A stretch of DNA of 64,000 nucleotides, taken from assembly GCA_040389965.1 (NCBI GenBank), contig JAZJZF010000021.1, forward strand, positions 79,887 to 143,886. Direction: 5' to 3'. The stretch comes from Bacteroidota bacterium. Lineage in GTDB: Bacteria; Bacteroidota; Bacteroidia; B-17B0; Aurantibacillaceae. Under the pieces are notes generated by a model. It saw only the letters and a list, made by a program, of their open reading frames with translations. It made no database searches and had not been told where the DNA came from. Of the stretch, positions 1 to 19,481 are shown one piece after another. Each line of letters starts with the position of its first letter. The first letter of the stretch is position 1. A program made the position numbers and the translations under genes.

Positions 1-630
1 TAATTATAGCCGGAAACATCTTTTTTTGAAGTATTAAAATTTGTACTGTAAACCCCAATACTTGCTGTATACCATAAAATAAGCTCATCAATAAAAAACA
101 AATGATTTTGATGAGAAACAATATTTGCAACAAGGTCTTTTTTTAAAGCCCGGAAACTTGAACCAAGTCCGGCATAAGGATTCTCGACCTTTGAGATAGA
201 TTTATAAAATGCTGTAACTGCCCTTCGCGTCAATGATTTTTTGATGTTCTTAGGCATGGCGTACACAACATCTCTATCAATAGTTATAATAGAATTATAT
301 AAAGCAACAATGTCTTTAGGATCATGTTCAAAATCATCGTCAATAGTAATCACAATATTTCCCGTAGAATTATAAAAACCACACAAGGTAGCTTTATGCT
401 GCCCGAAGTTTTTAGCAAGCGAAAATGCTTTGATGTTTTTATGACTTGAGCAAATCTCTTTTATTGCCTGCCAGCTATGGTCTTTACTACAATCGTCCAC
501 AACAATGATTTCAAAAGATTTACCAAATTGGGTCAATACAGAATGAATCTCGCCAATAAGCTTACTTATGCAAGCCGCTGCATTGAACACAGGAATGATA
601 ACTGATATTTCTTTGTCTTCTTGCTGCATC
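1..630 (-). CDS. Family 2 glycosyltransferase, GtrB/ArnC/DPM1-like polyprenyl-phosphate sugar transferase (partial; C-terminus lies beyond window start)
   Basis: Absent from the ORF track because it runs off the window. ATG at 630-628, open for 210 codons to base 1. Translation MQQEDKEISVIIPVFN..IVVDDCSKD..KNFGQHKATLCGF..TGNIVITIDDDFEHDP..RRAVTAFYKSISK..GSSFRAL matches the GT-A fold and the RNFG / D.DLQ.P / G.FR blocks of GtrB/ArnC-type enzymes. Confidence 0.75.
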
Positions 631-631
631 T

Positions 632-1381
632 CTAATTAAAACCTAAAGTTAAACCACCATCCATTTTCAAACAAGTACCAGTAACCCATTTACTGGCATC
701 CGAAATAAAATAAGCCAGTGCCTGTGCAATGTCATCAGGCTCCCCTACTCCCAGAGGATACTGGGCAATCAGCTTATTCATTTCATCCGTATTGATAGCA
801 GCATCCAGTGTACTTTCAAAAATAGCTGTATTTACAAGGGCAGGCTGCAAAATGTTAACCCTTATTTTTTTAGGAACCATCTCAAGCGCCAATACTTTTG
901 CATAACCTTCTAGCGCTGCTTTTGAGCTGATATAAGGCCCTCCGCCAAAATAAGCATGTAGGGTTGATACCGAAGAAATAAACGCGATGGATGCACCGTT
1001 ATTGATTTTCTTTTGTTTTAATAATTCAGATACTGTATGTACTGCCGAAAAATAATTAACGCTAAATACATCTTCCAGGTGCCTGTCCTGTATAAATTTT
1101 ATCGGTACCGGTAAAACCTTGCCACAACAGTGTACAAAGCCATCAATACTATTCATCTCGGCAACTAATTTTTTAATATCATCGCTATGAGTGAGATCTG
1201 CTATAACGAACTGATGCTGATTATTTGCTTTTAACAACGAAAACGTTTCTTTAAGTTTTTCTTCATTTCTTGCCGTAATAATTAACTCCGCACCTAAATT
1301 GCTGAACAGAACAGCGGTTGCTCTTCCTATTCCTGAAGAGGCTCCCGTTATTAATATTTTTTTATGTAGCAATGATATCAA
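632..1381 (-). CDS. Short-chain dehydrogenase/reductase, FabG-like 3-oxoacyl-ACP reductase
   Basis: Rossmann motif ILITGASSGIGRAT and catalytic S..YxxxK (YISSKAAL). The track start at 1405 is a TTG that overlaps the upstream gene by 28 nt. I prefer the TTG at 1381, which forms a TTGA stop/start overlap with that gene. The start is uncertain; the stop is firm. Confidence 0.8.
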   Translation of the reverse strand: MISLLHKKILITGASSGIGRATAVLFSNLGAELIITARNEEKLKETFSLLKANNQHQFVIADLTHSDDIKKLVAEMNSIDGFVHCCGKVLPVPIKFIQDRHLEDVFSVNYFSAVHTVSELLKQKKINNGASIAFISSVSTLHAYFGGGPYISSKAALEGYAKVLALEMVPKKIRVNILQPALVNTAIFESTLDAAINTDEMNKLIAQYPLGVGEPDDIAQALAYFISDASKWVTGTCLKMDGGLTLGFN

Positions 1382-2439
1382 GATAATTCTATTAAAGGTA
1401 AACAAACAATATTCTTAGTTTTGACAAGAGCACTTCCCCACGAAAAACCAACTCCGAAACCGCATAAACACAGGGTCAGTGATTTTTCTTCCAGCATTGC
1501 CGAAGCTTCCGTAATCATCGTAAGTGGAATAGATGCTGAACTCGTATTGCCATATTTTTCGAGTGAATATAATACTTTATGCACATCTGTAATTTTCAAT
1601 TTTTTCCTTACAGATTCATTAATTAATTTATTAGCCTGATGAAAAACAAACAGATCTGTATCCCCAATACTTTGATTGGCCTTGGCATATAACTCATTTA
1701 CATTAGGGGATACCTCTTTTAAAGCAAAGTTAAAGATTCCTATACCATCCAATTTTAAATGCCTTTTCTCTCTTGCAATCCCCGGTTCTATCTCTACCAA
1801 TGTAAACGTATCTTCCTTAATGCCGTTCCTTGAGCCGCCATGTTCTATGTTGATCGCATCTTTCCCGGAACCATCAGACCCCAAATTAAAATACATCGTC
1901 TCTGCCTGGGGATCGTATTCAAAAGCGGTAGCAGAACCGGCATCACCAAATAAAGGATACGCGCTTTTATCTGTATATGCCGTTGATACGGTCGATTTAT
2001 CGCCCACCATCAATAATCCTTTTTTGAGCTGGCCCGAACTCATGAGGTTACTTAATACGTACATGCCATACACATAGCCCGAGCAACCTAAATTAATATC
2101 AAAAGCAAGGCACGATTTTTTAAATCCTAACCTGTCCTGCAAAATAACTGCCGAACCGGGAATAAAATAATCGGGCGATTGAGTAACGACTATAATAACA
2201 TCAATATCGTCTTTGTTCCATTGTAACTTTTCAATAAGCTGTTTCGCCGGTTCATAGCACATATCAGAGGTGGACTGATGTTCGCCTGCAACCCTTCGTT
2301 CTCTTATACCTGTAGTTTTAATAAACAGTTCACGCTCAGGCATAGTAATGTGCTCGTAATTCAAATTAGAATACACAGTAGACGGAACGCTTGCTGCGAT
2401 CCCCTTTAGTGAAACATTATTTACGGTAACAAAACTCAT
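1378..2439 (-). CDS. FabH-like 3-oxoacyl-ACP synthase III (KAS III)
   Basis: 353 aa. The Cys-His-Asn triad is present in context (NLGCSGYVYG, FVFHQANKLI, YGNTSSASIP). An ATGA overlap joins it to the upstream ACP gene. Confidence 0.85.
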   Translation of the reverse strand: MSFVTVNNVSLKGIAASVPSTVYSNLNYEHITMPERELFIKTTGIRERRVAGEHQSTSDMCYEPAKQLIEKLQWNKDDIDVIIVVTQSPDYFIPGSAVILQDRLGFKKSCLAFDINLGCSGYVYGMYVLSNLMSSGQLKKGLLMVGDKSTVSTAYTDKSAYPLFGDAGSATAFEYDPQAETMYFNLGSDGSGKDAINIEHGGSRNGIKEDTFTLVEIEPGIAREKRHLKLDGIGIFNFALKEVSPNVNELYAKANQSIGDTDLFVFHQANKLINESVRKKLKITDVHKVLYSLEKYGNTSSASIPLTMITEASAMLEEKSLTLCLCGFGVGFSWGSALVKTKNIVCLPLIELS

Positions 2440-2675
2440 TCTTTTATATTTTCCTTAACAATATTGTAAAGATCTCTTACTGTAGAGGTATTTTTTAAAT
2501 TATCAGCCGTTAGCTGAACATCAAAATTTGCATCAATAAACGCAATAATAATAAGCGCATACATAGAACTCCAGTTTTTTATATCCCGGTAATTTGTATC
2601 CGGAAACACCGTATTTGGTTCAACGTCTTCAAACTCCGCTACCAGTTGCTCCGTAAATTCTTCTGCTGATATCAT
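2436..2675 (-). CDS. Dedicated acyl carrier protein-like protein
   Basis: 79 aa, acidic, of four-helix ACP size. The candidate phosphopantetheine serine lies in NWSSMYAL rather than the canonical DSL. It sits between two KAS III genes. Confidence 0.65.
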   Translation of the reverse strand: MISAEEFTEQLVAEFEDVEPNTVFPDTNYRDIKNWSSMYALIIIAFIDANFDVQLTADNLKNTSTVRDLYNIVKENIKE

Positions 2676-2689
2676 ATTCTTTTTTTAGT

Positions 2690-3670
2690 TTAATATTCAA
2701 TAATCGTTGCTCCCCAGCTATGGCCAATACCAAAGCCTGCCAGCATTACCTTCATGCCTTTTTTTAAAACTCCCTGCTGTTCGGCATCATCTAAAGCCAC
2801 CGGTATAGTAGACGCTACAGAGTTTCCAAAATTCTTAATATTTATAAAGAATTTTTCTTTAGGGATCTTACATTTTTTGCGAATAACCTCCAGCATAAAG
2901 TAGCTCGCCTGATGAAACACAAACAAATCTATATCTTCCAACTGGTATTGGTATTTTGCTAAAATATCTTTTACTAATCCCGGTACCAGTTTAACAGCAA
3001 ATAAAAATATTTCTGTACTCTGCATTTTCATCTGGCCATATGGCAGATTTGTTTTCTGTAGTATTTCTGGCGTACTGGGTTCCCTGGCAGCACTATTTTC
3101 AACAATTAAATTTTTGTAGCCGCTTCCATCCGTTCCAAAAATAAAATGCTGGGTAAATGAAGATTTGGTAATAATTGTAGCCGTTGCAATATCACTAAAA
3201 ATACTCCTTAGTTCCAGATCATCTTTATGAATAACCGTAGTTGGCATATCGCCGGTAAGAAATAAAACCTTTTCGCACATACCGCTCATTAAATAGGCAT
3301 GCGCCATTCCCAGCCCATATATATAGCCCGAACAGCCATAAGGCAGATCAACACAGCCAATATTTTTTGATAAGCCAAGCCTGTCCTGCAAAATACAGGA
3401 GGTTGCCGGGGCCTTATAATCAAAACCTTCCGAACAAAAGATCAGGAAATCGATCTCGCTTTTATCAATCTGATGTTTTTCTAAAAGAACATCAAAGGCT
3501 TTTACAGCCATATCAGAAGATAATTCGCCCGGAGCAGAAATATACCGCTGTTCAATACCTGTGTTTTTAAATAATTGCTCTTTTGACGTATTAAATTGTG
3601 TTCCTAAATCATCATTCGTTAAAATAGCCGCGGGAAGGTAAGTTGCAATATGATTTAGTAAAACGCCCAT
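2690..3670 (-). CDS. FabH-like 3-oxoacyl-ACP synthase III (second paralogue)
   Basis: 326 aa with the triad present (PYGCSGYIYG, FVFHQASYFM, FGNSVASTIP). First gene of the minus-strand operon. Confidence 0.85.
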   Translation of the reverse strand: MGVLLNHIATYLPAAILTNDDLGTQFNTSKEQLFKNTGIEQRYISAPGELSSDMAVKAFDVLLEKHQIDKSEIDFLIFCSEGFDYKAPATSCILQDRLGLSKNIGCVDLPYGCSGYIYGLGMAHAYLMSGMCEKVLFLTGDMPTTVIHKDDLELRSIFSDIATATIITKSSFTQHFIFGTDGSGYKNLIVENSAAREPSTPEILQKTNLPYGQMKMQSTEIFLFAVKLVPGLVKDILAKYQYQLEDIDLFVFHQASYFMLEVIRKKCKIPKEKFFINIKNFGNSVASTIPVALDDAEQQGVLKKGMKVMLAGFGIGHSWGATIIEY

Positions 3671-3856
3671 AGTATTAAGGTAAATTTATACAATAACATG
3701 AACATAAATAAACTTTCAACCATCTTTTTTTTAGGTCGGGCTATATCACTGTCTTCACTCATAAAAACACCGCTTTTAATAATTACTTTTAGATTTTGTT
3801 TGCAGATTATTAAAAAATACTATACTTTAGAGTACTAATTCTATAAAAACATAATC

Positions 3857-4249
3857 ATGAAAAAACTTCTATCAATTGTATGCCTGTCTGTTTTGATGCT
3901 TTCTGCAAAAGTATATGCCCAATCAAATATCACATGGACTATTAAAGATAATGTTCAAAAAGGGTTCTTTAAAACAAGTACTACTTTCAACACCCATTTT
4001 AGTGGCTTTACTACTAAAGCTCAGTCTGATGTTTTAATTCAAAAAATGAAAGCATTTAGCGATGTAGCTTCTGCAACAACTACAAATGCGGATGCAAATG
4101 GTAACTGCGATTTAAAATTGGTTATGAAGTCGGCTCATGAAAAAAGATATTACCTGGGAGTAGCACAAAAACTAGGGATTCAATACGTTGAAGTAAACGG
4201 TAATAAAAAAACACCTGCCCAGTGGATGGAAGGTAAAACAAAAAAATAA
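3857..4249 (+). CDS. Small secreted hypothetical protein
   Basis: 130 aa with an N-terminal signal peptide (MKKLLSIVCLSVLMLSAKVYA/Q). A hairpin terminator follows. I recognise no family. Confidence 0.55.
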   Translation: MKKLLSIVCLSVLMLSAKVYAQSNITWTIKDNVQKGFFKTSTTFNTHFSGFTTKAQSDVLIQKMKAFSDVASATTTNADANGNCDLKLVMKSAHEKRYYLGVAQKLGIQYVEVNGNKKTPAQWMEGKTKK

Positions 4250-4271
4250 GCATTAAAGATTTTAATAAGTA

Positions 4272-4301
4272 AGCGTCTCAAAATTCTGGGACGCTTTTTT
4301 T
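4272..4301 (+). terminator. Rho-independent terminator
   Basis: agcgtctca / tgggacgct stem (one G-U pair) followed by a T7 run. Confidence 0.6.
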
Positions 4302-4372
4302 ATGAACAATACTTTCCTATATTTAAACTTTAAACATCTGTTTTTATAAAACGTCTATAGTATTACCCCGAT

Positions 4373-6313: not shown

Positions 6314-6332
6314 CCTCAACGGTGCATACCTG

Positions 6333-8219: not shown

Positions 8220-8316
8220 GTTTAATTTAGTTAAAGGGACAATAAAATGTAGGGTTCCGTAAAAAAAATGTTAACTTAGACTAACATTTTAATTTTATTT
8301 AACAATACATTTTTCT

Positions 8317-11300
8317 ATGAAAAAAGTAATCCTATCACTAATGTTAGTAGCGTTGTCTCTATGTGGATTTTCGCAACTCTCCGTGGCTCCTAATCAAACA
8401 GCTACGAATTTGGCTAACTATCTATTAGGCGGCGGTGTTACCATCACTAATGCCCAATTGACCTGTCCCACAAATGCAAATGCCATATTTACTAATGGGG
8501 CAACTACCAATTTGGGATTAAACAGTGGTATTGTGCTCACAACAGGTTCGGCAGCTAATATTGCCAACGGAAATGGTACAAACAGTAGTGTTAACAATGG
8601 AGCTTCCGGGATTCCGCAAATGGCACCAATAAGCGGTACCAGTAGTAATTATGACGGCTGTATGCTCGAATTTGATATTAATCCAAAATGTTCTCCCTTA
8701 AATATCAGGTACAAATTTGCCTCGGAAGAATATCCTGAATATGTAGGTGCAGGATACAATGATGCTTTTGGCTTCTTTATTACCGGGCCTAATCCGTCGG
8801 GAGGAAATTATGCAAACTATAACTTAGCCGTTGTACCCGGAACAAGCTCTCCCGTTACTATTGATAATATTAACTCAGGAAATAACTCCTCTTATTACAT
8901 TACAAATACAGGCAGTACTATTGTGTATGATGGTATGACAACCGTTTTAACGGGAAGTGCCAACGTAACACCATGTGCCGACTACCATCTGAGGCTGGCT
9001 ATTACAGATGGGGGTGACCAATATTTTGATTCGGGTGTATTCCTTGAACAATCGGGTATTTCCTGTTCATCTCCAACAGTGAATGCCAGCGGTGCTACTA
9101 TATGCGCCGGACAATCTGCTACATTAACAGCATCCGGAACAACTACCTACACCTGGTCAACGGGTTCAACCGCTAATAGCATAGTCGTTTCTCCATCCTC
9201 AACAACATCCTACACCGTGGGAGGAAGTAATATCGGGATCTGTGTACAAACATCTAAAGTCATTACGGTTACGGTTAACAACGCTCCTACAGCAGTTGCA
9301 GGGCCAACAAAAGTATTAACCTGTGCTACAACTGCTACTGTTCTTTCCGGATCAGGCGGAGGCACTTATGCATGGTCAGGGCCTGGTATATTATCCGGAG
9401 GTTCTACAGCATCGCCAACCGTTAACCAACCCGGAAACTATACATTAGTAGTTACATCGGCAGGATGCCCTTCTTTACCATCAGTAGTAAACGTATCGCA
9501 AAATACAACACCACCTTCTGTTTCTTCTTCTGCAGGCGCATTAACCTGTGCTGTCACATCAGCCAATGTAACGGCGAACACTGCTGCTACTCCGGTCACT
9601 TATAATTGGTCCGGCCCCGGTATAACGGGTGGAGGTACAACCTCGTCACCTACTGTAAATCAACCCGGAACTTATAACTATACGGTTACCAACACTTCCA
9701 ATGGCTGTGCCACAACCGGATCACAGGCTATTACACAAAACATTGTTGCTCCTGTTGCTACATCCAGTGTTACAGCAGTACTAAACTGTACCTTAACTAC
9801 AGTTAATACGGTAGCAACCACTACTACTACACCTGTTACTTATAACTGGTCCGGTACAGGTATTACGGGTGGAAGCACTACCTCGTCACCTACTGTAAAT
9901 CAACCGGGCACATTCAATTATACGATCACCAGTACATCCAATGGCTGTACTACGACAGGCTCACAGGCGGTCACTCAAAATATTGTGCAACCTACTGTTG
10001 CCTCGAGTGCGCCAACTGTATTAAATTGTACGTTAACGTCTGTAAATGCAACAGCAAGTACAACCACTACTCCTGTTACTTATAACTGGTCTGGTCCGGG
10101 AGTTGTTTCAGGAGGTACAACTCCTACTGTTACAGTAAATCAACCGGGCACATATAACTATACAGTTACTGCTACTAATGGTTGCCAAAGAATAGGATCG
10201 CAGGCGGTTACTCAAAACATTGTAGCTCCCACAGTAGCCTCATCTGCCGGAGTATTAAACTGTACATTAACTTCTGTAAATGCTATTGCCAGTACTACTA
10301 CAACGCCTGTAACTTATAACTGGGGAGGGCCGGGTATTACAGGTGGCGCAACAACAGCAACGATTACGGCAAACCAACCGGGCACATATAATTATACGGT
10401 AACTGCAAATAACGGCTGTACAAAAACCGGCACACAAGCTATTACTCAAAACACGGCAACTCCTTCGGTAACAATGCCTGCCACACAAACCATTACCTGC
10501 GCAGCACCTTCTGTTACGCTCGTATCTTCGGCGTCTCCTTCCACCAGCATACCTGTTTGGACTGGCGGAGTATCGAGCGGAGTTAATAGCTATACTGCTA
10601 CTGCATCTTCAGCCAATACCTATACATTAACCATAACTGATCCGGCCAACGGATGTACTAAAACAGGAATAGTTCAGGTTGTTCCAAACGCGGGCTTCCC
10701 TACCGTGTTGGCAAGCAATACCAATTCGTTAAACTGTAACGTTACTTCTGCTCAGGTAGTAGCAACAACATCTACCACACCTGTATCTTATAGCTGGACA
10801 GGCCCTGGAATTACAGGCGGCGCAACAACAGCTACGGCATCTGTTAATGCCGGCGGACAATACACTGTAGTAGTTATGAATACAATTTCTTTATGTTCTT
10901 CAACTATTACAATAGCAGTACCTTTTAATACAACCGTTCCTACGCCTTCTATTACTGCATCAGGTTCTATTACCTGTACTTCGCCAACAGTTGCGTTAAA
11001 TGGTTTTCCAACAACCGGTGTAACTTATACCTGGACGGGCTCAGGAATAACAACCGGTCCTAACCTGCAAAATGTAATTGTAAATGCAGGAGGTAACTAT
11101 GTTCTAAACGTTACCAACATATCTAACGGTTGTACAGGCACACAAAATATATCGGTAGCAACCAACACCACTGCACCAAGTGTTAACTTAACTACCACAT
11201 CTTACACAACAACTTGTGCTGTTCCTAATGCTACATTTAGTGCCGTAGCAAATCCTGCTGCCAGTACTACCTATAGCTGGACATCTCCTCCTACAGGATC

Positions 11301-12912
11301 GTTGAACAGTTATACAGTATCAAATCCTATCGCCAGCGGTAGCGGTATTTTTACTGTAGCAGTTACAAATACAGTGAATGGTTGCGGAACATCCGCTATA
11401 ACACAAGGTACTGTACAAATAACTGCTGATGCAGGATTACCTTCAGCTACGATATCACAATCCTCAGCATCATTAACCTGTATTACTTCTGTGCAAACAG
11501 CTTCAGTTTTTACAACTCCGTCCTCTAACATTACATACACATGGAGTCCTGCACCTGCTACAGGTTTGCATGCTTCTGTGGCTACATTTACTACTCCTGG
11601 TACTTATGTATGTGCTTTTACGAATACAGCAAACGCTTGCCCTGGCAGTACGCAAATTGTGATCGTTACCAATACAACCACACCAACTGCAAATGTTACT
11701 CCTACGGTATCTTTAAATTGTTACTCTGTAACATCTACGATCAGCTCAACGGTTACACCTGCTTCAGGTATTACCTATACATGGGCAGGTAGCGGAATTG
11801 CAGGAGCCAATAACGGATCATCTGTATCTGTAAACAGTGCAGGAGTTTATACCTTATCTGTTTTAAATGCAGCTAACGGATGTTCAGCAACAGCGACGTC
11901 CTCTGTTATCAATAATACAACACCGCCAACATTAAGTGTTACACCATCAAGTACAGTTATTACCTGCGGTTCTCCAACATTAAATTTAAATGCGACTACC
12001 AATAGTACAGTTATTCCTGTATGGAATACACCAACAGGAAACGCTTATAACCCAATTGTAGCGGTAACTGCCGGTAATTATACGGTAAGCGTTATTGATC
12101 CTGTATCGGGTTGTACGGCATCCCTTACTCTTGCTGTGGCAGGAAGTACAGTAGCTCCTGCACTCAGTGTTACAGCTAATGCGATTATTCCTTGCGGATC
12201 AAGTTCGATAGATCTTTCGGCAGCGGCTACAGGTGGCGGCATCACCTATAACTGGGCAGGGCCAACAAGCGGAAGTATTATTGCGGGCGCTAATACAGCA
12301 ACTCCCATAGCAACAGCAGCCGGTGTTTATACAGTTACTATTACAAACAGCTATGGCTGTACAAGTTCTGCTACTGTAGCGGTAGCGCAAAGCTCGGTAA
12401 ACGCTGCATTTACAGCCGATCCTACTACAGGAGTTATTCCTTTAAATGTAAATACCACTAACCAAAGTACAGGTGGTAGTCTTACTTATCAGTGGAATTT
12501 CGGTAACGGTTCAACATCAACAAACGTAAGCCCCGGAACTGTTTATAACACAAGCGGAACTTATACTATTGTTCTCATTGCATCATCAGGTTCATGTGCA
12601 GATACCGCAACAGCAATTATTGTTGTAGAAGATAACATGTCTCTGGAAATACCTAATGTGTTTACTCCTAATAATGATGGTACAAATGATATTTTTACTA
12701 TTAAATCAACCGGTATCAAAGAAATATCATTACAGATCTTTAACCGTTGGGGAGAAAAACTATACGAATTTACAGGAACCAAAGCTGCCTGGGACGGTAT
12801 GACCCCTCAAGGAGCAAAAGTACCGGATGCCACTTATTTTTACTTCGTAAAAGCCTATGGTTTTGATGATAAGGAAATAGAAAAGCATGGTACCGTTAAC
12901 CTCTTCAGGTAA
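8317..12912 (+). CDS. Giant secreted surface protein with a choice-of-anchor-L-like N-domain, many Ig-like repeats, a PKD domain and a T9SS type B sorting domain
   Basis: 1531 aa with a signal peptide. N-domain: LEFDI..YKFASEEYPEY..YNDAFGFFITGPN. More than a dozen roughly 80-aa two-Cys repeats (C...Y[ST]W[ST]GPG...G.Y...V...NGC). PKD motif WNFGNGS. The C-terminus IPNVFTPNNDGTNDIF..FNRWGEKLYEF..WDG..PDATYFYFV..KHGTVNLFR matches the gliding-motility-associated (CHU_C/SprB-type) CTD. Confidence 0.9.
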   Translation: MKKVILSLMLVALSLCGFSQLSVAPNQTATNLANYLLGGGVTITNAQLTCPTNANAIFTNGATTNLGLNSGIVLTTGSAANIANGNGTNSSVNNGASGIPQMAPISGTSSNYDGCMLEFDINPKCSPLNIRYKFASEEYPEYVGAGYNDAFGFFITGPNPSGGNYANYNLAVVPGTSSPVTIDNINSGNNSSYYITNTGSTIVYDGMTTVLTGSANVTPCADYHLRLAITDGGDQYFDSGVFLEQSGISCSSPTVNASGATICAGQSATLTASGTTTYTWSTGSTANSIVVSPSSTTSYTVGGSNIGICVQTSKVITVTVNNAPTAVAGPTKVLTCATTATVLSGSGGGTYAWSGPGILSGGSTASPTVNQPGNYTLVVTSAGCPSLPSVVNVSQNTTPPSVSSSAGALTCAVTSANVTANTAATPVTYNWSGPGITGGGTTSSPTVNQPGTYNYTVTNTSNGCATTGSQAITQNIVAPVATSSVTAVLNCTLTTVNTVATTTTTPVTYNWSGTGITGGSTTSSPTVNQPGTFNYTITSTSNGCTTTGSQAVTQNIVQPTVASSAPTVLNCTLTSVNATASTTTTPVTYNWSGPGVVSGGTTPTVTVNQPGTYNYTVTATNGCQRIGSQAVTQNIVAPTVASSAGVLNCTLTSVNAIASTTTTPVTYNWGGPGITGGATTATITANQPGTYNYTVTANNGCTKTGTQAITQNTATPSVTMPATQTITCAAPSVTLVSSASPSTSIPVWTGGVSSGVNSYTATASSANTYTLTITDPANGCTKTGIVQVVPNAGFPTVLASNTNSLNCNVTSAQVVATTSTTPVSYSWTGPGITGGATTATASVNAGGQYTVVVMNTISLCSSTITIAVPFNTTVPTPSITASGSITCTSPTVALNGFPTTGVTYTWTGSGITTGPNLQNVIVNAGGNYVLNVTNISNGCTGTQNISVATNTTAPSVNLTTTSYTTTCAVPNATFSAVANPAASTTYSWTSPPTGSLNSYTVSNPIASGSGIFTVAVTNTVNGCGTSAITQGTVQITADAGLPSATISQSSASLTCITSVQTASVFTTPSSNITYTWSPAPATGLHASVATFTTPGTYVCAFTNTANACPGSTQIVIVTNTTTPTANVTPTVSLNCYSVTSTISSTVTPASGITYTWAGSGIAGANNGSSVSVNSAGVYTLSVLNAANGCSATATSSVINNTTPPTLSVTPSSTVITCGSPTLNLNATTNSTVIPVWNTPTGNAYNPIVAVTAGNYTVSVIDPVSGCTASLTLAVAGSTVAPALSVTANAIIPCGSSSIDLSAAATGGGITYNWAGPTSGSIIAGANTATPIATAAGVYTVTITNSYGCTSSATVAVAQSSVNAAFTADPTTGVIPLNVNTTNQSTGGSLTYQWNFGNGSTSTNVSPGTVYNTSGTYTIVLIASSGSCADTATAIIVVEDNMSLEIPNVFTPNNDGTNDIFTIKSTGIKEISLQIFNRWGEKLYEFTGTKAAWDGMTPQGAKVPDATYFYFVKAYGFDDKEIEKHGTVNLFR
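9598..10470 (+). repeat. In-frame tandem repeats, period 240/240/234 bp (about 80-aa domains)
   Basis: The landmark acttataa[ct]tgg (TYNW) recurs at 9598, 9838, 10078 and 10312. The units translate to near-identical TYNWSGPGITGG..TVNQPGTYNYTVT..NGC..QNIVAP..LNCTLT domains. Confidence 0.85.
12643..12909 (+). other. Segment encoding the T9SS type B C-terminal sorting domain
   Basis: LEIPNVFTPNNDGTNDIFTIKSTG...HGTVNLFR. By eye it aligns closely, with scattered mismatches, to the DNA of 18995-19261. Confidence 0.8.
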
Positions 12913-12940
12913 GATAAATACCTGATATCACTTGCTCAAG

Positions 12941-12972
12941 CCCCGTTTTTAACATATAAACGGGGCTTTTTG
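12941..12972 (+). terminator. Rho-independent terminator
   Basis: ccccgttt / aaacgggg stem followed by a T run, 30 nt after the stop codon. Confidence 0.7.
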
Positions 12973-13058
12973 CTGCCATCATTCTGAAGAATTTCTGGAT
13001 ATCTGAAACGGATTGTTTTAATCTATAGATTTATAGCTGCAAAAACATATCATATCAG

Positions 13059-13418
13059 ATGAAAAATCATAACCAAAATATCTTTATTACTGTTTTCCTA
13101 ATCTTTATTACAGTAACCGGATTTAGTCAAACACAAAAATCTACTACTCCCAAAAGTTCTCATAGCACAGCAAATTCAAGCAATTCGAAGAAAGTAGAAA
13201 CAAACTCACCCGGGTTTCAATTAGACGAAAATGATCCTTATCAGGGAAGAAAAAGTGAATTTTTAAACCAGATTATTGTGCCGGAGATTCCTGCAGATTT
13301 TCCAAAATATGAAAAGTGGATGGGTGTAAGGCACTATAACGAAGTGATTGAAGACTATTATAAAAAACACCCGGAAATCCTGAAAGAGAGTGTGAAAAAT
13401 AAACTCTTAAGAAACTAA
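13059..13418 (+). CDS. Small secreted hypothetical protein
   Basis: 119 aa with a signal peptide (…ITVTGFSQ), a Ser/Thr-rich linker and a charged C-terminal half. It lies between the two giant genes. Confidence 0.5.
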   Translation: MKNHNQNIFITVFLIFITVTGFSQTQKSTTPKSSHSTANSSNSKKVETNSPGFQLDENDPYQGRKSEFLNQIIVPEIPADFPKYEKWMGVRHYNEVIEDYYKKHPEILKESVKNKLLRN

Positions 13419-13462
13419 CATCAACCTCATACCTCTCCCCTACAATGCCAAATTTATTTATC

Positions 13463-16400
13463 ATGAAAAAATTTTACTCGTCCTTAATGATAGGTTTCAT
13501 ATGCCTGTTATTTTCAGGTAACCTATTCTCGCAGGGTAATACCTGCGCAACTGCAGAACCATTTTGTACAGCAGTTGGCTCACCCTATATCTTTACAAAT
13601 GTAACAGATGGCAATACGGGCTTTTGCAGCTCCTGCCCTGCGGCCGGTTGTTTAAGTTCAACTCCCCGCCCATCCTGGTTTTATGTAAAATCCTTAACTG
13701 CAGGGGCAATGACCTATAGCCTTTCACAATCTACAAGCATTGGAGGAACTCCTAACATTGATGTCGATTTTATTGCTTACGGACCTTATTCTGCCGCTCA
13801 ATTTACCAATGCCTGTGCATCATTACTTACAGGATCATGTTCAGGAGATCATAACTGTATAGGTAATATAGAAGATTGCAGTTATTCAATTGCATCTACT
13901 GAAACCATGACTCTTAGCCCAACCGCGGGCGGACAATACTACCTGATCATGATCACCAATTATGACGGTGTTGCAGGTTATATTACGTTTACACAAACCG
14001 GTGGTAATGGCTCTGATTGTGCGATTACCTGCCCTGATGATAATTTTGTACTGGTAGGAACAAATAAATCAACCAGCGCAGATGTTCCAAGTGGAAGCAC
14101 CCTAAATTGTAATCAGAATATTCAGTTGGATCCTCCTGATCTGGGTGGTTTTTCATACAATCCTTTTACCGATCAGTTGACACCTTGTATGCAGGTATAC
14201 ATTGAGCCTTTCCGCAGTAACTTAGCAACCAATGGCTCTATCGATGTTTATGAAAACGGATTTGATTCATGGTTTGCCTGTCCTTCGGGTTGTGGCGGTG
14301 CCATTGGTGGAACTACAGCAACCAACGGTGTCAATTTTGGTTGGTTCCTTGGTCAGGCAGATCCTAATTACAGCCATCCCAGCGTGTTTTGCCGAACCGG
14401 TACAATAGGCGCTAATACAGCAACCGTAAGTTTAAGAAGCTGTTGGGACAATACACAAATTCTTGCCGGACCACAGGCATGGAACTCTACAACATGTTTT
14501 ACATTAACAGCTGCTGCATCTCCAACTGCTTATGGTACTGCAGCTTTTTCAGTTACTCCGGTAGCAGGCGCGGCGGGCTTAAGCGATACCCATTGGGGGC
14601 GTGCAACCATTACCCCATCTTTGATCCCGAGCGGAACATATACTGTTACTTACACCTTTAACAATGGAAAATGCGGAGATCTGCATGGGAAATATGTATT
14701 TACAATTCCACCTACTCCTACTATCACTGCAGCGTCGGCAGCAAGCCAGACAATATGTGCAGGCAGCACTGTGGCTGCTGAAAACTTTGTTATAACCCCT
14801 GCAGCAGGTACTTATGTATGGAACAATGACAATACCACTATTGGTGTTGGAGCTTCCGGTACTTCAACTATTAATGCATATACAGCACCAAATATAGGAA
14901 GCACCACTATAGGCAATTTTACCATTACACCTACAGCATCCGGTTGTATTGGTACGCCAAGAACATTTACCATAACTCTTAATCCTAAACCCACGGTATC
15001 CATCGTATCAAATCCTGCATCCAGTATTTGTTTAAACAGTTCTCTTACATTTACATCAAGTGGTGCAAATACTTACACCTGGAGTTCATCTGCCAACGGA
15101 GGCTTAGGCTCTACATCAGGAACTAACGTGGGTGCTACACCTACTGCAACGGGAACAATAACTTACACAGTAAATGCTACATCAGTAGCAGGCTGTACAA
15201 ACACCGCTACTCAAAATATTACTGTTAATGCTTTACCTGTTGTAACTATTACGCCAGCCAGTAGCGGAACATTATGTTCAGGAACAAGCATCACTCTTAC
15301 AGGATCAGGTGCTTCTACGTATGCATGGCAAGCGCCTGCAGGTGGCGGATTAAGCGGCACATCGGGTTCGGTAGTAACAATTACACCTACTGCTTCCCCA
15401 TTAACTTATACCGTAACAGGAACTGCTGCCAATACCTGTACTAACGTAGCTATAAGAACTATTACGGTTATAGCTACACCAACAATCTCAGTATCCAATC
15501 CTTCTGCTACACAATCGAGCACTATATGCAGTGGCAACTCTGTTGTATTAACCGCTTCAGGCGCGGGAACATTTACATGGAGTCCCGCCACAGGATTAAG
15601 TTCTACCACAGGTAGTCCGGTAACCGCTAGTCCTACAAACACAGCCTCTCCAACAATTTATACCGTAACTGGTACTTCTGCTGCGGGTTGTATCAGCCCT
15701 GTTTCTTCGCAGGGAACATTTACGGTTACGGTTAATCCTATACCTAACGTTTCTATATCATCCACGCCAGCATCAAGCGTTTGTTTAAATAGTGCTTTAA
15801 CGTTTACGGCAAGCGGCGCAAATACTTACACCTGGAGTTCATCTGCCAACGGAGGTTTAGGCTCTACATCAGGTGCTAACGTGGGTGCTACACCTACTGC
15901 AACGGGAACAATAACTTACACGGTAAATGCTACATCAGTAGCAGGCTGTACAAACACCGCTACTCAAAATATTACTGTTAATGCTTTACCTGTTGTAACT
16001 ATTACGCCAGCCAGTAGCGGAACATTATGTTCGGGAACAAGTATTACCTTAACCGGGTCGGGTGCCACTTCTTATGCATGGCAATCACCCGCAGGTGGCG
16101 GCTTAACTGGTTCGGGATCAGTTGTAACTATTGCTCCTACTGTATCACCTGTAACCTATACCGTAACAGGAACTGCCGCTAATACCTGTACTAATATAGC
16201 TATAAGAACCATTACCGTTATGGCTACACCAACTGTATCAGTATCCAATCCTTCTGCTACACAATCGAGTACCCTATGCAGTGGCAACTCTGTTGTACTA
16301 ACAGCATCAGGCGCAGGAACATTTACATGGAGTCCTGCCACAGGATTAAGTTCTACCACAGGCAGTCCGGTAACCGCTAGCCCTACAAATACAAGTTCTC

Positions 16401-19264
16401 CAACAATATATACCGTAACAGGTACTTCCGCTGCAGGTTGTATCAGTCCTGCTTCTTCACAGGGAACATTTACGGTTATGGTTAATTCTACTCCTACTAT
16501 TACTGCTATCGCTACAAGATCGGCTTGCGCAGGTTCAACAGTTCCTGCATTATCTTTTACCGTTAATCCATCAAGCGGAAGTGTTAACTGGATTAACAAT
16601 AACACCTCTACGGGTTTAACAGCCAGTGGTACCGGTAGCACTATTGCAGCCTTTACGGCTTCCAATGTTACGTCTTCCACTATAGGTGTTATAACTACTA
16701 CCGCAACTGTAAATGGGTGTACTGCAACCTTCAATCATACACTAACAGTTAACCCATTACCTTTGGTTAGTATAACACCTTTAAGTCAAACCATTACATG
16801 TGCTGCTCCAACAGTAACCCTTACCGGTTCATCAAATCCCGCTTCTGCTACTCCTGTATGGACAGGTGGCGTATCAAGTGGTGTGAACAGTTATACAGCT
16901 ACGGCATCATCTGCCAATATTTATACATTAACTGCTACCAGTCTTGCCGGTTGCCTTGGCACAGCTACTACACAGGTTGTGCCTAGTGCAGGTCTTCCAA
17001 CAGTTGCAGCAAGTATTACAAATTCTTTAAATTGTACAGTAACATCGGCACAGGTTATTGCCACTACATCTACTACTCCTGTATCTTATAGCTGGACTGG
17101 CCCCGGAATTACTTCGGGAGCTACAACAGCGACTGCATCCGTCAATACAGGCGGACAATACACAGTAGTAGTGACCAATACCCTTTCTTTATGCTCTACT
17201 ACTATTACAACGTCGGTACCATCCAGTACTACACCAATTACACCAAGCATAACGGCAACAGGCTCTATCACCTGCTCTACGCCTACCTTAACATTAAACG
17301 GAGCTCCTGCAGGTAGTGTAACTTACACATGGTCGGGTGTAGGTTTAATAAGCGGAACAAATACACAAACAGCAGCCGTTAATAGCGGAGGTGTTTATAC
17401 CTTAAGTGTTACCAGTATAGCCAATGGCTGCGTAGGTTCTCAAACTCTAGCCATATCTACTAATACAACTGCACCAACGGTAAGTATGACTCCTACATCG
17501 AGCTACACAACTACCTGTGCCAATCCTACTGTTGCACTAAATACTACGGTTAATCCTTCAACAGGTGTTACCTATAGCTGGACAGCTCCTTCAACAGGTG
17601 CGTTAAACAGCTACACCATATCAAACCCTGTAGCAAGTGGTAGCGGTGCCTTTACAGTAGCAGTTACCAATAGTGCTAACGGTTGTAGCACAGCATCCGC
17701 GTCGCAGGCTACTGTACAAATTACAGCAGACGCAGGCATACCGGTAGTAACCTTATCTGCTAATTCAACAAGTATCACCTGTGCCAATCAAACACCAAGT
17801 ATAGCTGTTACAACTACAGCAAGCCCTGTGAGCTACAGCTGGTCGCCTACTACAGGCATTGTTCCTGGCACGGAAACCACTGCAAATCCTTCGTTTAATA
17901 CTCCGGGAACTTACAGTGTAATAGTTACAAATACTGTATCGGGTTGTGCATCAAGTGCTGCGCAAAGTGTGGTAACCGTAACATTAAATAATACACCTCC
18001 GGTTATTTCTTCGTTCTTAACCACAAACGGCGGTACCATTACCTGTGCTAATCCTTCTATAACGGTTACTCCATCCATAACGCCAAGCAGTAATTTAACC
18101 TATACCTGGACAGGCGGAGCGGGACTTATTACTCCTGCGAACCAGGCAAACGCCACATTTAATGCTCCCGGCACTTATACTCTGGCAGTAACAAATACCG
18201 TAACGGGTTGCGTATCGGTTACCACAAATTCGGCAAGTACTATTACTATTTATCAAAATACAGTTACCCCTACAGTAAGCGCTGCTGCAGCATCGAGTAA
18301 CAGTGTTATTGGTTGTGCAAATTCTACGGTTACCTTCTCTACAAGCATAACCGCATCGGGTAGTAATTTAAGCTATAACTGGAATACAGGTGCCACTACA
18401 CCAACCATAAGCATTACAACTGCCGGCGCCTATTCGTTTACAGTTACCGATAATAGTAATGGATGCTCTGCAAATACCCAGTTTACGGTAACAGGTAATA
18501 CCACTCCTCCACAAAATGTAAATGCAGGTGCTTCTGTAAATATTGCCTGTGGAAGCTCTACTACTACTTTAAATGGCACATCAACTTCTACAAATGTTAG
18601 CTATAGCTGGTCGGGACCAGGCTCAGGAAGTATTGTTTCAGGAAGTAATACGGCAAGCCCGGTTGTAGGCGAAACAGGAACCTATACCTTAACCGTAACT
18701 GACAATATAACAGGTTGCCAAAGCACATCTACTGTAAATGTAACCCAGGCCTTTGTAACAGCTTCATTTACGGCAGATCCTACAACGGGAATAGCTCCTT
18801 TAACTGTAAACTTTACCAATACCAGTGTGGGCGCTACCTCTTACAGTTGGAATTTTGGCGATTCACAAACATCTGCGCAAACAAATCCGGTTAATGTATT
18901 TACAACAGGTACTTATACTGTTTTGTTAACGGCTACATCGGGCACCTGTACTGCTACCGCCACCCTGCAGGTTGTTGTGGAAGACGGGCTGACTCTGGAA
19001 ATCCCGAATGTATTTACTCCTAATAATGACGGCATAAATGACCTGTTTACCATAAAATCGACCGGTGTAAAAGATATATCCCTGCAGATTTTTAACCGTT
19101 GGGGAGAAAAACTATATGAGTTCTCAGGAGCGAAAGCAGCCTGGGACGGGCTCAATACCCAGGGAATAAAAGTGCCGGATGCCACTTATTTTTATTTTGT
19201 AAAAGCCCGTGGTTTTGACGATAAAGAAATAGAAAAGCACGGCACAGTTAACCTTTTTAGGTAA
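13463..19264 (+). CDS. Giant secreted surface protein with a Cys-rich N-domain, many Ig-like repeats, a PKD domain and a T9SS type B sorting domain
   Basis: The track ORF starts at 13445. The ATG at 13463 gives a canonical signal peptide, MKKFYSSLMIGFICLLFSGNLFSQ. N-domain starts GNTCATAEPFC. Dozens of two-Cys T/S-rich repeats, PKD motif WNFGDSQ, and the same type B CTD as the 8317 gene. Confidence 0.9.
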   Translation: MKKFYSSLMIGFICLLFSGNLFSQGNTCATAEPFCTAVGSPYIFTNVTDGNTGFCSSCPAAGCLSSTPRPSWFYVKSLTAGAMTYSLSQSTSIGGTPNIDVDFIAYGPYSAAQFTNACASLLTGSCSGDHNCIGNIEDCSYSIASTETMTLSPTAGGQYYLIMITNYDGVAGYITFTQTGGNGSDCAITCPDDNFVLVGTNKSTSADVPSGSTLNCNQNIQLDPPDLGGFSYNPFTDQLTPCMQVYIEPFRSNLATNGSIDVYENGFDSWFACPSGCGGAIGGTTATNGVNFGWFLGQADPNYSHPSVFCRTGTIGANTATVSLRSCWDNTQILAGPQAWNSTTCFTLTAAASPTAYGTAAFSVTPVAGAAGLSDTHWGRATITPSLIPSGTYTVTYTFNNGKCGDLHGKYVFTIPPTPTITAASAASQTICAGSTVAAENFVITPAAGTYVWNNDNTTIGVGASGTSTINAYTAPNIGSTTIGNFTITPTASGCIGTPRTFTITLNPKPTVSIVSNPASSICLNSSLTFTSSGANTYTWSSSANGGLGSTSGTNVGATPTATGTITYTVNATSVAGCTNTATQNITVNALPVVTITPASSGTLCSGTSITLTGSGASTYAWQAPAGGGLSGTSGSVVTITPTASPLTYTVTGTAANTCTNVAIRTITVIATPTISVSNPSATQSSTICSGNSVVLTASGAGTFTWSPATGLSSTTGSPVTASPTNTASPTIYTVTGTSAAGCISPVSSQGTFTVTVNPIPNVSISSTPASSVCLNSALTFTASGANTYTWSSSANGGLGSTSGANVGATPTATGTITYTVNATSVAGCTNTATQNITVNALPVVTITPASSGTLCSGTSITLTGSGATSYAWQSPAGGGLTGSGSVVTIAPTVSPVTYTVTGTAANTCTNIAIRTITVMATPTVSVSNPSATQSSTLCSGNSVVLTASGAGTFTWSPATGLSSTTGSPVTASPTNTSSPTIYTVTGTSAAGCISPASSQGTFTVMVNSTPTITAIATRSACAGSTVPALSFTVNPSSGSVNWINNNTSTGLTASGTGSTIAAFTASNVTSSTIGVITTTATVNGCTATFNHTLTVNPLPLVSITPLSQTITCAAPTVTLTGSSNPASATPVWTGGVSSGVNSYTATASSANIYTLTATSLAGCLGTATTQVVPSAGLPTVAASITNSLNCTVTSAQVIATTSTTPVSYSWTGPGITSGATTATASVNTGGQYTVVVTNTLSLCSTTITTSVPSSTTPITPSITATGSITCSTPTLTLNGAPAGSVTYTWSGVGLISGTNTQTAAVNSGGVYTLSVTSIANGCVGSQTLAISTNTTAPTVSMTPTSSYTTTCANPTVALNTTVNPSTGVTYSWTAPSTGALNSYTISNPVASGSGAFTVAVTNSANGCSTASASQATVQITADAGIPVVTLSANSTSITCANQTPSIAVTTTASPVSYSWSPTTGIVPGTETTANPSFNTPGTYSVIVTNTVSGCASSAAQSVVTVTLNNTPPVISSFLTTNGGTITCANPSITVTPSITPSSNLTYTWTGGAGLITPANQANATFNAPGTYTLAVTNTVTGCVSVTTNSASTITIYQNTVTPTVSAAAASSNSVIGCANSTVTFSTSITASGSNLSYNWNTGATTPTISITTAGAYSFTVTDNSNGCSANTQFTVTGNTTPPQNVNAGASVNIACGSSTTTLNGTSTSTNVSYSWSGPGSGSIVSGSNTASPVVGETGTYTLTVTDNITGCQSTSTVNVTQAFVTASFTADPTTGIAPLTVNFTNTSVGATSYSWNFGDSQTSAQTNPVNVFTTGTYTVLLTATSGTCTATATLQVVVEDGLTLEIPNVFTPNNDGINDLFTIKSTGVKDISLQIFNRWGEKLYEFSGAKAAWDGLNTQGIKVPDATYFYFVKARGFDDKEIEKHGTVNLFR
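14981..16483 (+). repeat. Recent in-frame tandem duplication (753 bp plus 750 bp, three Ig-like domains per copy)
   Basis: aatccta..acg at 14981 recurs at 15734 and the unit ends at 16483. Block 15065-15279 against 15818-16032 shows 4 mismatches in 215 bp by my alignment. Copy 2 carries one 3-bp deletion. Confidence 0.9.
18995..19261 (+). other. Segment encoding the T9SS type B C-terminal sorting domain
   Basis: LEIPNVFTPNNDGINDLFTIKSTG...HGTVNLFR. Confidence 0.8.
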
Positions 19265-19450: not shown

Positions 19451-19481
19451 TTTGTTGATGAAGAAAATAATTATATCTTTG
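19451..19481 (+). promoter_or_regulatory. Bacteroidota-type promoter of the str/ribosomal operon
   Basis: -33 TTTG (19451-19454), a 19-nt spacer, then -7 TATCTTTG (19474-19481), matching TAnnTTTG. A small leader hairpin, tcccca/tgggga, lies at 19485-19499. Confidence 0.5.

Follow-up and report, generated by a model that had tools for sequence, protein, structure and literature searches.

We analyzed a 64,000-nt stretch of DNA from a Bacteroidota bacterium (Aurantibacillaceae; assembly GCA_040389965.1, contig JAZJZF010000021.1, positions 79,887 to 143,886 of the forward strand), which we refer to as the window, and here focus on the region at positions 1 to 19264. In this region, a minus-strand operon for two β-ketoacyl-acyl carrier protein synthases III (KAS III), an acyl carrier protein (ACP), a short-chain dehydrogenase/reductase (SDR), and a family 2 glycosyltransferase (GT2) diverges from plus-strand genes for two membrane-bound glycosyltransferases of the GT-C type with tetratricopeptide repeat (TPR) tails (GT-C1 and GT-C2) and for two giant proteins carrying a C-terminal domain (CTD) for type IX secretion system (T9SS) export (Table 1). 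We propose that these genes encode a two-compartment glycosylation pathway that runs via a polyprenyl-phosphate carrier and in which the giants are the likely acceptors, a reading to which we give about an even chance. Genes were identified using an open reading frame (ORF) map together with Pfam and NCBIfam profile scans, and all features listed in a preliminary description of the window were found in place, with small corrections.

The preliminary description had characterized GT-C1 and GT-C2 as tandem TMTC/PMT-like GT-C enzymes with TPR tails, and in line with this are the predicted fold, an acidic motif in loop 1, a reading with 11 transmembrane (TM) helices, and several TMTC motifs. The AlphaFold2 model of GT-C1 had a mean predicted local distance difference test score (pLDDT) of 88 for the full protein, while a model of the TM domain only had a pLDDT of 84 and a predicted TM-score of 0.88. 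When the TM-only model was used as a query in Foldseek, 23 of the first 25 matches were GT-C glycosyltransferases, and the other two, at ranks 16 and 18, were GPI-transamidases; TMq values were 0.31 to 0.51 over these ranks, and the probability was 1.00 for all GT-C matches down to rank 24. The matched GT-C folds include STT3, Pmt4, AglB, PglB, ArnT, Pmt1/2, ALG3, and EmbB; the structures compared included no TMTC. The full-length model returned TPR proteins alone, as did a profile of the full-length protein against PDB sequences, while a profile of the TM domain gave no match in PDB sequences and the family scans gave no match of the GT-C enzymes to YfhO. The predicted fold together with the acidic loop-1 DD motif places GT-C1 in the GT-C superfamily (GT-C_A fold). 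If the helix at residues 271 to 290 is the juxtamembrane helix of loop EL4, then the model of GT-C1 would comprise 11 TM helices, its N-terminus lying inside and its TPR domain on the periplasmic side.

Among 59 homologs, D34 D35, Y82 R83 P84, H150, E152, K158, R160 D161, K202, E261 N262, and R364 are invariant, and E363 is conserved in at least 90%; Y367 is present in GT-C1 of the window. GT-C2, which is 28 to 32% identical to GT-C1, retains the DD, YRP, H.E..K.RD, EN, and ER residues. We compared GT-C1 with motifs M1 to M7 of the TMTC proteins (Eisenhaber et al. 2021, PMC7801869). GT-C1 shares with them M1 (the loop-1 DD), the YRP part of M2, M3 (H.E...R.D/E, with R160-x-E162 following H150-T-E152 at the spacing of TMTC3), and M7 (ERxxY; E363 R364 and Y367). 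It differs from them in that M4, KE(T/Q)xxT, is reduced to its lysine (K202) and M5, DW, is replaced by E261 N262; M6 is uncertain. We therefore describe the GT-C enzymes as TMTC-like in predicted architecture and partly in motifs and do not file them as TMTC members. At E ≤ 1e-3, the TM domain alone retrieved 17,905 clusters at 50% identity, a number that drops to 1,130 when the cut-off is set to 1e-30. Based on the GT-C fold and the conserved adjacency to a GtrB/ArnC-type GT2 described below, we infer that GT-C1 and GT-C2 use a sugar donor linked to polyprenyl phosphate.

The minus-strand genes lie end to end or share a few bases, as would be expected of an operon; the gap between the SDR and GT2 genes is 2 nt, and the ACP-like ORF overlaps the start of the downstream KAS III gene by 4 nt at its stop codon. 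The catalytic Cys, His, and Asn motifs are legible in both KAS III proteins (GCSGY, FHQAN, and GNTS in the copy at 1378-2439; GCSGY, FHQAS, and GNSV in that at 2690-3670). The ACP-like ORF has a candidate phosphopantetheine serine in NWSSM, as read directly from the sequence, and is flanked by a KAS III gene on either side in every related locus. FabG-type NCBIfam models matched the SDR ketoreductase below their cut-offs; its true start may be at 1381, and the relatives' orthologs are predicted to be 249 aa long. The GT2 gene runs off the left window edge, and the full-length ortholog in the closest relative (L002 in our set of loci) has 307 aa, is 92% identical, and contains two C-terminal hydrophobic helices (residues 231-249 and 260-278). 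This ortholog aligns end to end with the ArnC model (E 5e-35, residues 4-305) and the PgfS model (E 7e-32, residues 8-305). Because its scores of 121 and 111 bits are far below the equivalog cut-offs of 529 and 500 bits, respectively, we consider the GT2 a member of the GtrB/ArnC/DPM1/PgfS type of family and not an ArnC or PgfS ortholog. Together, the domain matches and these alignments confirm the FabH-ACP-FabH-SDR module and the GtrB/ArnC/DPM1-like GT2 of the preliminary description.

To follow the operon beyond the window edge, we used gene tables of the 10-kb left flank in five relatives, i.e., L002, L003 (GT-C identity to the window of 92% and 66%, respectively), and L005, L006, and L008 (44 to 56%). 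In all five, the remainder of the GT2 gene is followed within the operon by a gene for a 208-aa GNAT-family N-acyltransferase; among named families, this protein matches PseH best, an enzyme that N-acetylates UDP-4-amino sugars (E 1e-12, with a score below the cut-off). The GNAT gene is followed by two or three genes for OlsC/LpxO-like Asp_Arg_Hydrox proteins and, in several loci, by sulfotransferase genes (L002:417-4720, L003:1-4351, L005:2624-4813, and L008:399-4682). Specifically, L002 and L003 have Asp_Arg_Hydrox paralogs followed by three weakly NoeE-like sulfotransferases, while in L008 the paralogs are followed by one sulfotransferase and an MBOAT protein. None of the Asp_Arg_Hydrox proteins has a signal peptide, and in two of them the C-terminus ends in a hydrophobic tail. 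Wzx/Wzy, sugar-nucleotide, and DegT-family genes were absent from these flank tables, and the locus has no ArnA/B/D, ArnE/F, GtrA, or pglE/pglF-like genes. On the basis of these 10-kb flanks, we rejected an ordinary O-antigen locus, which the preliminary description had named as one of the findings that would overturn a protein glycosylation reading. An N-acyltransferase, which that description had anticipated to the left of the window, is thus present in the relatives in the form of the PseH-like GNAT; the aminotransferase and flippase that it had also anticipated were not found.

To assess the conservation of the locus, we used a set with one genome per species, giving 78 loci with the TPR-GT-C family, all from uncultured Bacteroidota metagenome-assembled genomes (MAGs) except for two records with non-Bacteroidota organism labels. 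The window proteins were placed on these loci using tblastn and a hidden Markov model of the CTD. A close locus counted as evaluable when its GT-C identity was 40% or higher and 4 kb or more of sequence flanked it on each side (n = 13); 22 distant loci were evaluable. The donor module adjoins the GT-C genes in 12 of the 13 evaluable close loci and was seen in all contexts examined at 42 to 92% GT-C identity. Moreover, the KAS III-ACP-KAS III-SDR-GT2-GNAT core is also found beside GT-C genes of only ~30% identity in ~10 loci, in other orientations. The tailoring genes in the distant loci differ and encode B12-radical SAM, JmjC/Cupin_8, AMP-ligase, methyltransferase, and sulfotransferase proteins; for instance, three JmjC/Cupin_8 genes take the place of three Asp_Arg_Hydrox genes, or one or two B12-radical SAM genes are added (L048, L064, L074, and L080). 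This gene content suggests a single scaffold whose tailoring varies among lineages. With the conservation in the close loci and the recurrence of the core beside distant GT-C genes with changed orientation and tailoring as strong evidence, we consider it likely that the module makes the donor for the TPR-GT-C family, and we regard this donor-to-GT-C link as robust.

The GT-C genes are also linked to giants in the close clade. In 9 of the 13 evaluable close loci, a giant with a CHU_C domain lies within 1.5 kb on the same strand, and two loci (L018 and L019) retain the small secreted ORF, GT-C1, GT-C2, and a giant without the donor module. GT-C2 orthologs precede a giant with a choice-of-anchor-L domain in 12 loci, while such a giant occurs without GT-C2 in two loci. 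In L005 and L008, the gene order is GT-C, giant, GT-C, small ORF, giant. The pairing of GT-C2 with the choice-of-anchor-L giant and the interleaved order suggest enzyme-client specialization. The TMTC-like, GtrB-like GT2, and giant genes are thus syntenic in related genomes, and the hypothesis of the preliminary description withstood the check for missing synteny that it had itself set, as it did that for an O-antigen locus.

At greater distances, GT-C genes were independently found beside other giant T9SS repeat proteins (L043, L044, L046, L051, L057, L059, L067, L076, and L084), including a protein with SprB repeats and CHU_C (L051), a protein with a type A CTD (L046), and proteins with PKD arrays (L057). 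Among the 22 evaluable distant loci, about 7 to 8 adjoin such giants. A reverse search starting from the choice-of-anchor-L domain mostly returned small type A CTD proteins and is thus uninformative on the linkage between giants and GT-C genes. We note that in L043, two tandem pairs of ORFs (positions 4993-9925), each consisting of a ~480-aa ORF with an AlgI-like N-terminus and a ~315-aa ORF, lie directly 5' of two GT-C genes and a giant of >2000 aa with SprB repeats. With the MBOAT identity read by eye, these pairs hint at O-acylation of the same surface product. A Bacteroidales subgroup (L052, L069, L072, L078, and L087) has a ~680-aa TPR-GT-C protein with a basic N-terminal extension, encoded in a conserved, apparently housekeeping setting 3' of an rsmA/ksgA-like gene (identity read by eye from the N-terminus). 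This subgroup has neither the donor module nor a giant as a neighbor, which suggests a different or general role.

The two giants match the preliminary description of giant Thr/Ser-rich T9SS repeat proteins in that both have signal peptides and CTDs scoring above curated cut-offs. For giants 1 and 2, the scores were 75 and 76 bits, respectively, against CHU_C (PF13585; cut-off 27) and 56 and 54 bits against TIGR04131 (cut-off 35). The CTDs are 85% identical although the protein bodies differ. The repeats of both giants are arranged in tandem, are ~80 aa long, and belong to one Ig_7/PKD-like family; in giant 1, DNA repeats of 234 to 240 bp with 74 to 76% identity are present at 9587-10453. Ser and Thr together account for 30.8% and 33.2% of the residues in giants 1 and 2, respectively, with Thr at 19 to 20% in both, while D, E, K, and R together account for only 3.6% and 3.8% (each about 0.3 to 1.7%). 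The GC content is 44 to 46% over the giants versus 34 to 37% in the flanks, plausibly as a consequence of their Thr/Ser/Ala/Gly-rich composition. The window contains three more T9SS cargo genes, all on the minus strand and all with a type A CTD (Por_Secre_tail), at 44567-46663, 46695-48827, and 51449-54538, one of which encodes a 1029-aa protein with Amidase_2 and CUB domains. With 16 to 21% Ser and Thr and 14 to 16% charged residues in these three proteins, the giants are the compositional extremes of the window. We also considered whether the giants could be clients of the general O-glycosylation system of Bacteroidota and rejected this possibility, as the D[ST][AILVMT] sequon is virtually absent, occurring once in the 1531 aa of giant 1 and not at all in the 1939 aa of giant 2. 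Consequently, their glycosylation would call for a route of its own.

Starting from the gene content, fold, motifs, and synteny described above, we propose the following for the donor chemistry, the topology, the acceptor, and the timing of the pathway. In the cytoplasm, the two KAS III proteins, the ACP, and the ketoreductase would assemble a short acyl chain bearing hydroxyl groups; the chain is probably 3-hydroxy or 3,5-dihydroxyhexanoyl in type, and the PseH-like GNAT would move it onto the amino group of an amino sugar that is activated as a nucleotide sugar. Loading of the N-acyl sugar onto undecaprenyl phosphate would then fall to the ArnC/GtrB/PgfS-type GT2. In the relatives, the OlsC/LpxO-like, membrane-associated hydroxylases and the sulfotransferases probably decorate the intermediate further at the cytoplasmic face. 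After transfer of the carrier-linked sugar to the periplasm by a putative flippase, the two TMTC-like GT-C enzymes, with their acidic loop-1 motif and TPR domains facing the periplasm in our topology reading, would hand the sugar to the acceptor. Judging from gene neighborhood only, the likeliest acceptors are Ser/Thr residues in the Ig-like repeats of the two downstream giants, and GT-C2 may be specialized for the choice-of-anchor-L giant. The modification would occur after Sec export and before export by the T9SS. The preliminary description had drawn an analogy to the eukaryotic DPM1-TMTC route, which uses dolichyl-phosphate mannose. Mannose is unlikely, and an N-acylated amino sugar is indicated, given the PseH-like GNAT and the ArnC-like GT2.

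Several observations weigh against this pathway or against parts of it. The organism is uncultured, and the pathway is known here from sequence, predicted structure, and synteny alone. Neither a flippase gene nor genes for an amino-sugar aminotransferase or dehydratase were seen in the window or in the relatives' 10-kb left flanks, at variance with the claim of the preliminary description that every part needed for glycosylation is brought together at the locus. Unlike in the eukaryotic TMTCs, TMTC_DUF1736 is not matched: its best E value was 0.19, in one of seven TM domains, and it is absent from ten long family members (801-985 aa), which we had suspected might be eukaryotic TMTCs. Some bacterial TPR domains bind polysaccharide and not protein. 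T9SS cargo genes are dense, with 5 in 64 kb. The synteny in the close clade partly reflects shared ancestry and is, therefore, not independent evidence. We estimate that adjacency to some cargo gene would arise by chance in ~15 to 20% of cases, over which the independent distant cases (about 7 to 8 of 22) are only moderately enriched. Finally, 8 of the 22 evaluable distant loci have the donor module and GT-C but no giant nearby, and none of the 22 has both the module and a giant. Hence, the deepest conserved link is that from donor to GT-C and not that from GT-C to giant. We regard the link between GT-C genes and giants as real, though weaker than the donor link, and the candidate clients are assigned from gene neighborhood. 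On balance, we lean slightly toward the giants as the principal clients of the GT-C enzymes.

These same distant loci bear on the alternative that the donor pathway is as proposed and that the sugar is transferred to another acceptor, i.e., lipid A, the lipopolysaccharide (LPS) core, O-antigen, or another envelope glycan, by analogy to Arn or Gtr, with the giants being neighbors via co-regulation of surface components or shared ancestry. This alternative would also account for the observations that the best named match of the GT2 is ArnC, that ArnT, a lipid A enzyme, is among the structural matches of GT-C1, that the adjacent hydroxylases resemble OlsC and LpxO, i.e., lipid acyl hydroxylases, and that T9SS cargo genes are common in the genome. 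However, ArnT and GtrC-type enzymes have no TPR tail, and GT-C1 shares motifs with the protein-modifying TMTC family. Moreover, giant T9SS repeat proteins adjoin GT-C genes in several distant lineages, GT-C2 pairs with the choice-of-anchor-L giant, L018 and L019 retain GT-C and giant genes in the absence of the donor module, and the neighboring giants are extremely Ser/Thr-rich and charge-poor. We therefore regard transfer to a non-protein acceptor as improbable.

A broad protein O-glycosylation system, with many Ser/Thr-rich periplasmic or surface substrates of which the giants are merely the largest or most abundant, appears to us just as improbable. The precedents for such breadth are streptococcal GtrB/PgtC2 and Pgf, each with more than one Ser/Thr-rich substrate and the substrates being unrelated. 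The GT-C family is also very large, and many of its members, such as those of the Bacteroidales group 3' of rsmA, are without a client-like neighbor, as are the distant module-bearing loci with no giant nearby. Against this breadth, the pairing of GT-C2 with the choice-of-anchor-L giant is paralog-specific, and GT-C and giant genes are interleaved in L005 and L008. That there is no functional link at all between the two strands, with the minus-strand operon acting in an unrelated polysaccharide or lipid pathway, is highly improbable: although the operons are divergent, a terminator-like hairpin follows the small ORF, and KAS-ACP-KAS-KR modules are known in ordinary O-antigen loci too, the module keeps its place beside GT-C genes in all but one of the evaluable close loci, recurs beside ~30%-identical GT-C genes in other orientations and gene orders, and has annotated flanks without Wzx/Wzy genes.

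The reading that we prefer, i.e., glycosylation of the giants by GT-C1 and GT-C2 from a polyprenyl-phosphate-linked donor, follows a logic shared with several known systems. A GT2 that makes a polyprenyl-phosphate sugar combined with transfer by a GT-C enzyme outside the cytoplasm is common to the Arn, Gtr, CsbB/YfhO, and actinobacterial Ppm1/Pmt systems. As in Arn and Gtr, a GT-C enzyme is accompanied by a GT2 of the ArnC/GtrB type that ends in two TM helices, and ArnC likewise handles an N-acylated (formylated) 4-amino sugar; unlike in Arn and Gtr, the GT-C enzymes here are TPR-tailed, the neighbors are giant secreted proteins and not LPS genes, and partner genes of the ArnA/B/D, ArnE/F, or GtrA type are lacking. 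In the eukaryotic TMTC1-4 proteins (GT105), which are O-mannosyltransferases of cadherin EC domains, a multi-TM GT-C domain is followed by TPRs on the non-cytoplasmic side, the arrangement suggested by our model of GT-C1, and the putative clients here are likewise adhesin-like arrays of β-sandwich repeats. In contrast to the TMTC donor, dolichyl-phosphate mannose, the donor here would probably be an undecaprenyl-phosphate N-acylated amino sugar.

The preliminary description knew of no bacterial equivalent with adhesin-like clients; such systems have already been described in streptococci. The Pgf cluster of S. mutans comprises PgfS, PgfE, two GT-C enzymes (PgfM1 and PgfM2), and three adhesins rich in Ser and Thr (Cnm, CnaB, and CbpA), with WapA as a further adhesin of the system; in S. 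pyogenes and S. pneumoniae, Ser/Thr-rich regions are glucosylated by GtrB/PgtC2 (PMC12041528, PMC5856776). The proposed pathway resembles both in combining a GtrB-type GT-A enzyme with a GT-C enzyme that would transfer to Ser/Thr-rich regions, and it resembles Pgf in that two GT-C paralogs and genes for Ser/Thr-rich adhesins are in one cluster. It differs from Pgf in that the GT-C enzymes are PMT_2/TMTC-like with TPR tails and not of the YfhO family, in that the host is diderm and the candidate clients are T9SS type B cargo of folded Ig-like repeats and not LPXTG adhesins or disordered regions, and in that the putative donor genes here include a dedicated acyl module and a GNAT but no epimerase.

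In F. psychrophilum, wfpC (KAS), wfpD (ACP), wfpE (KAS), and wfpF (KR), together with an acyltransferase, are predicted to equip UDP-Qui2NAc4N with a 3,5-dihydroxyhexanoyl group in amide linkage (PMC6519341). Our proposal of a short hydroxyacyl-ACP as the product of the window module rests on the analogy to wfpC-wfpD-wfpE-wfpF-wfpG, in which the order of KAS, ACP, KAS, KR, and then an N-acyltransferase is identical. The two loci differ in that the acyltransferase here is PseH-like and not PglD-like, that the module here would feed a GtrB-type GT2 and GT-C enzymes and not Wzx/Wzy assembly, and that pglE/pglF-like genes are not in the locus. The general O-glycosylation system of Bacteroidota (lfg locus) modifies T9SS cargo, e.g., T. 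forsythia TfsA/TfsB, in the periplasm before export (PMC11611037). The pathway proposed here would likewise act on T9SS cargo in the periplasm before export, but it differs from the lfg system in the near absence of the sequon from the giants and in that a single-sugar carrier logic based on GT2 and GT-C takes the place of en bloc oligosaccharide assembly. Leads on FpgA of F. psychrophilum, pep25/lbp26 of F. collinsii, and CTD N-glycosylation in C. hutchinsonii turned out not to concern this gene set and were set aside. In the literature searched, we found no description of bacterial TMTC-like enzymes in Bacteroidota or of the arrangement of this locus. The new elements compared to known systems are the type of GT-C enzyme, the phylum and secretion route, and the dedicated acyl-sugar chemistry with its lineage-variable tailoring. 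Overall, we consider the locus a plausible variant of a known glycosylation logic.

A more specific possibility, which we put forward only tentatively, is that Bacteroidota have a TMTC-type, domain-specific O-glycosylation system in which each GT-C paralog serves its own client, attaching an amino sugar with a polyketide-like acyl group, in relatives also hydroxylated and sulfated, from undecaprenyl phosphate to the Ig-like repeats of giant T9SS type B adhesins that are nearly free of charge. If so, cadherin O-mannosylation by eukaryotic TMTCs would have a counterpart, and possibly an evolutionary relative, in bacteria, and the system would be a tractable bacterial model of TPR-based selection of folded β-sandwich clients by TMTC-like enzymes. 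It would also provide a function for a very large uncharacterized bacterial TPR-GT-C family (~18,000 clusters at 50% identity; TM domain, E ≤ 1e-3), and T9SS cargo in Bacteroidota would have a second route of O-glycosylation that does not depend on the sequon. Similarly, SprB-like and Ig-repeat gliding or adhesion proteins could then bear unusual acylated glycans, and a sulfated glycan might supply the surface charge that is missing from the giant polypeptides. The variable tailoring genes hint at a diversifying surface chemistry, which could bear on recognition by phages, grazers, or hosts.

Table 1. Features in the region at positions 1 to 19264 of the window
Feature	Coordinates	Strand	Basis or remark
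GT2, polyprenyl-phosphate type (ArnC/GtrB/PgfS-like), N-terminal 209 aa	1..629	-	PF00535, E 3e-27; runs off left window edge
SDR-family ketoreductase, FabG-like	632..1405	-	adh_short_C2, E 6e-43, and KR domain
KAS III (FabH-like), second copy	1378..2439	-	ACP_syn_III and ACP_syn_III_C; NF006829, 252.8 bits (cut-off 249)
ACP-like ORF, 79 aa	2436..2675	-	Weak ACP match, E 3.7e-4
KAS III (FabH-like), first gene of operon	2690..3670	-	ACP_syn_III and ACP_syn_III_C; NF006829, 244.4 bits (just below cut-off of 249)
Secreted protein, 130 aa, signal peptide ending AQ|SN	3857..4249	+	No Pfam, NCBIfam, or PDB match
Strong terminator-like hairpin, 10-bp stem and T-run	4271..4296	+	Consensus match; between small ORF and GT-C1
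GT-C1, TMTC-like, ~11 TM helices and C-terminal TPR, 646 aa	4373..6313	+	PMT_2, 30.6 bits (gathering cut-off 26.1); TPRs
GT-C2, TMTC-like paralog with TPR tail, 628 aa	6333..8219	+	PMT_2, 22.6 bits (below cut-off of 26.1); TPRs
Giant 1, 1531 aa: Sec signal peptide, choice-of-anchor-L, 15 repeats, T9SS type B CTD	8317..12912	+	NF038133, E 1e-63
ORF of 119 aa: N-terminal hydrophobic anchor, Ser/Thr-rich linker, helical C-terminal part	13059..13418	+	No family match
Giant 2, 1939 aa: Sec signal peptide, 18 repeats, T9SS type B CTD	13445..19264	+	Ig_7 in 5 stretches, PKD

Two small ORFs, which the preliminary description had overlooked together with the hairpin at 4271-4296, accompany the plus-strand genes. 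Orthologs of the 130-aa secreted protein are 31 to 96% identical, occupy the same slot in >25 loci, share a conserved SN.TW..KD motif, and in the close clade are always encoded directly 5' of GT-C1; the protein may serve as a substrate, an adaptor, or a periplasmic accessory. Orthologs of the 119-aa ORF are 59 to 81% identical and are located directly 5' of the second giant (L006, L014, L028, L030, L037, and L041), while ORFs of 145 to 149 aa are found in the same slot in L005, L006, and L008. A consensus scan gave no terminator-like site in the gaps from GT-C1 to GT-C2 and on to giant 1; over the region as a whole, such sites are no more numerous than expected by chance. No gene similar to a PorP/SprF-like anchoring gene was noticed between giant 2 and rpsL, where no search aimed at one was made.

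Downstream of giant 2, rpsL-rpsG-fusA follow from position 19545, and a Bacteroidota-type -7 box, TATCTTTG, at 19474-19481, ~64 bp 5' of rpsL, is consistent with the rpsL promoter mentioned in the preliminary description. Scans of the window for σ70 promoters and for TAnnTTTG -7 boxes did not yield matches above chance. The label of an accessory locus, which had been given to the genes upstream of this promoter, was not substantiated, and a relative with 66% GT-C identity has the same layout beside rpsL. Lastly, the two records with non-Bacteroidota labels, L012 (CALRIU020000004.1; Hydrocarboniphaga daqingensis) and L072 (SACF01000010.1; Alphaproteobacteria bacterium), both carry the TPR-GT-C family, and L012 additionally has the donor module and a CHU_C giant; both MAGs are probably mislabeled or contaminated.

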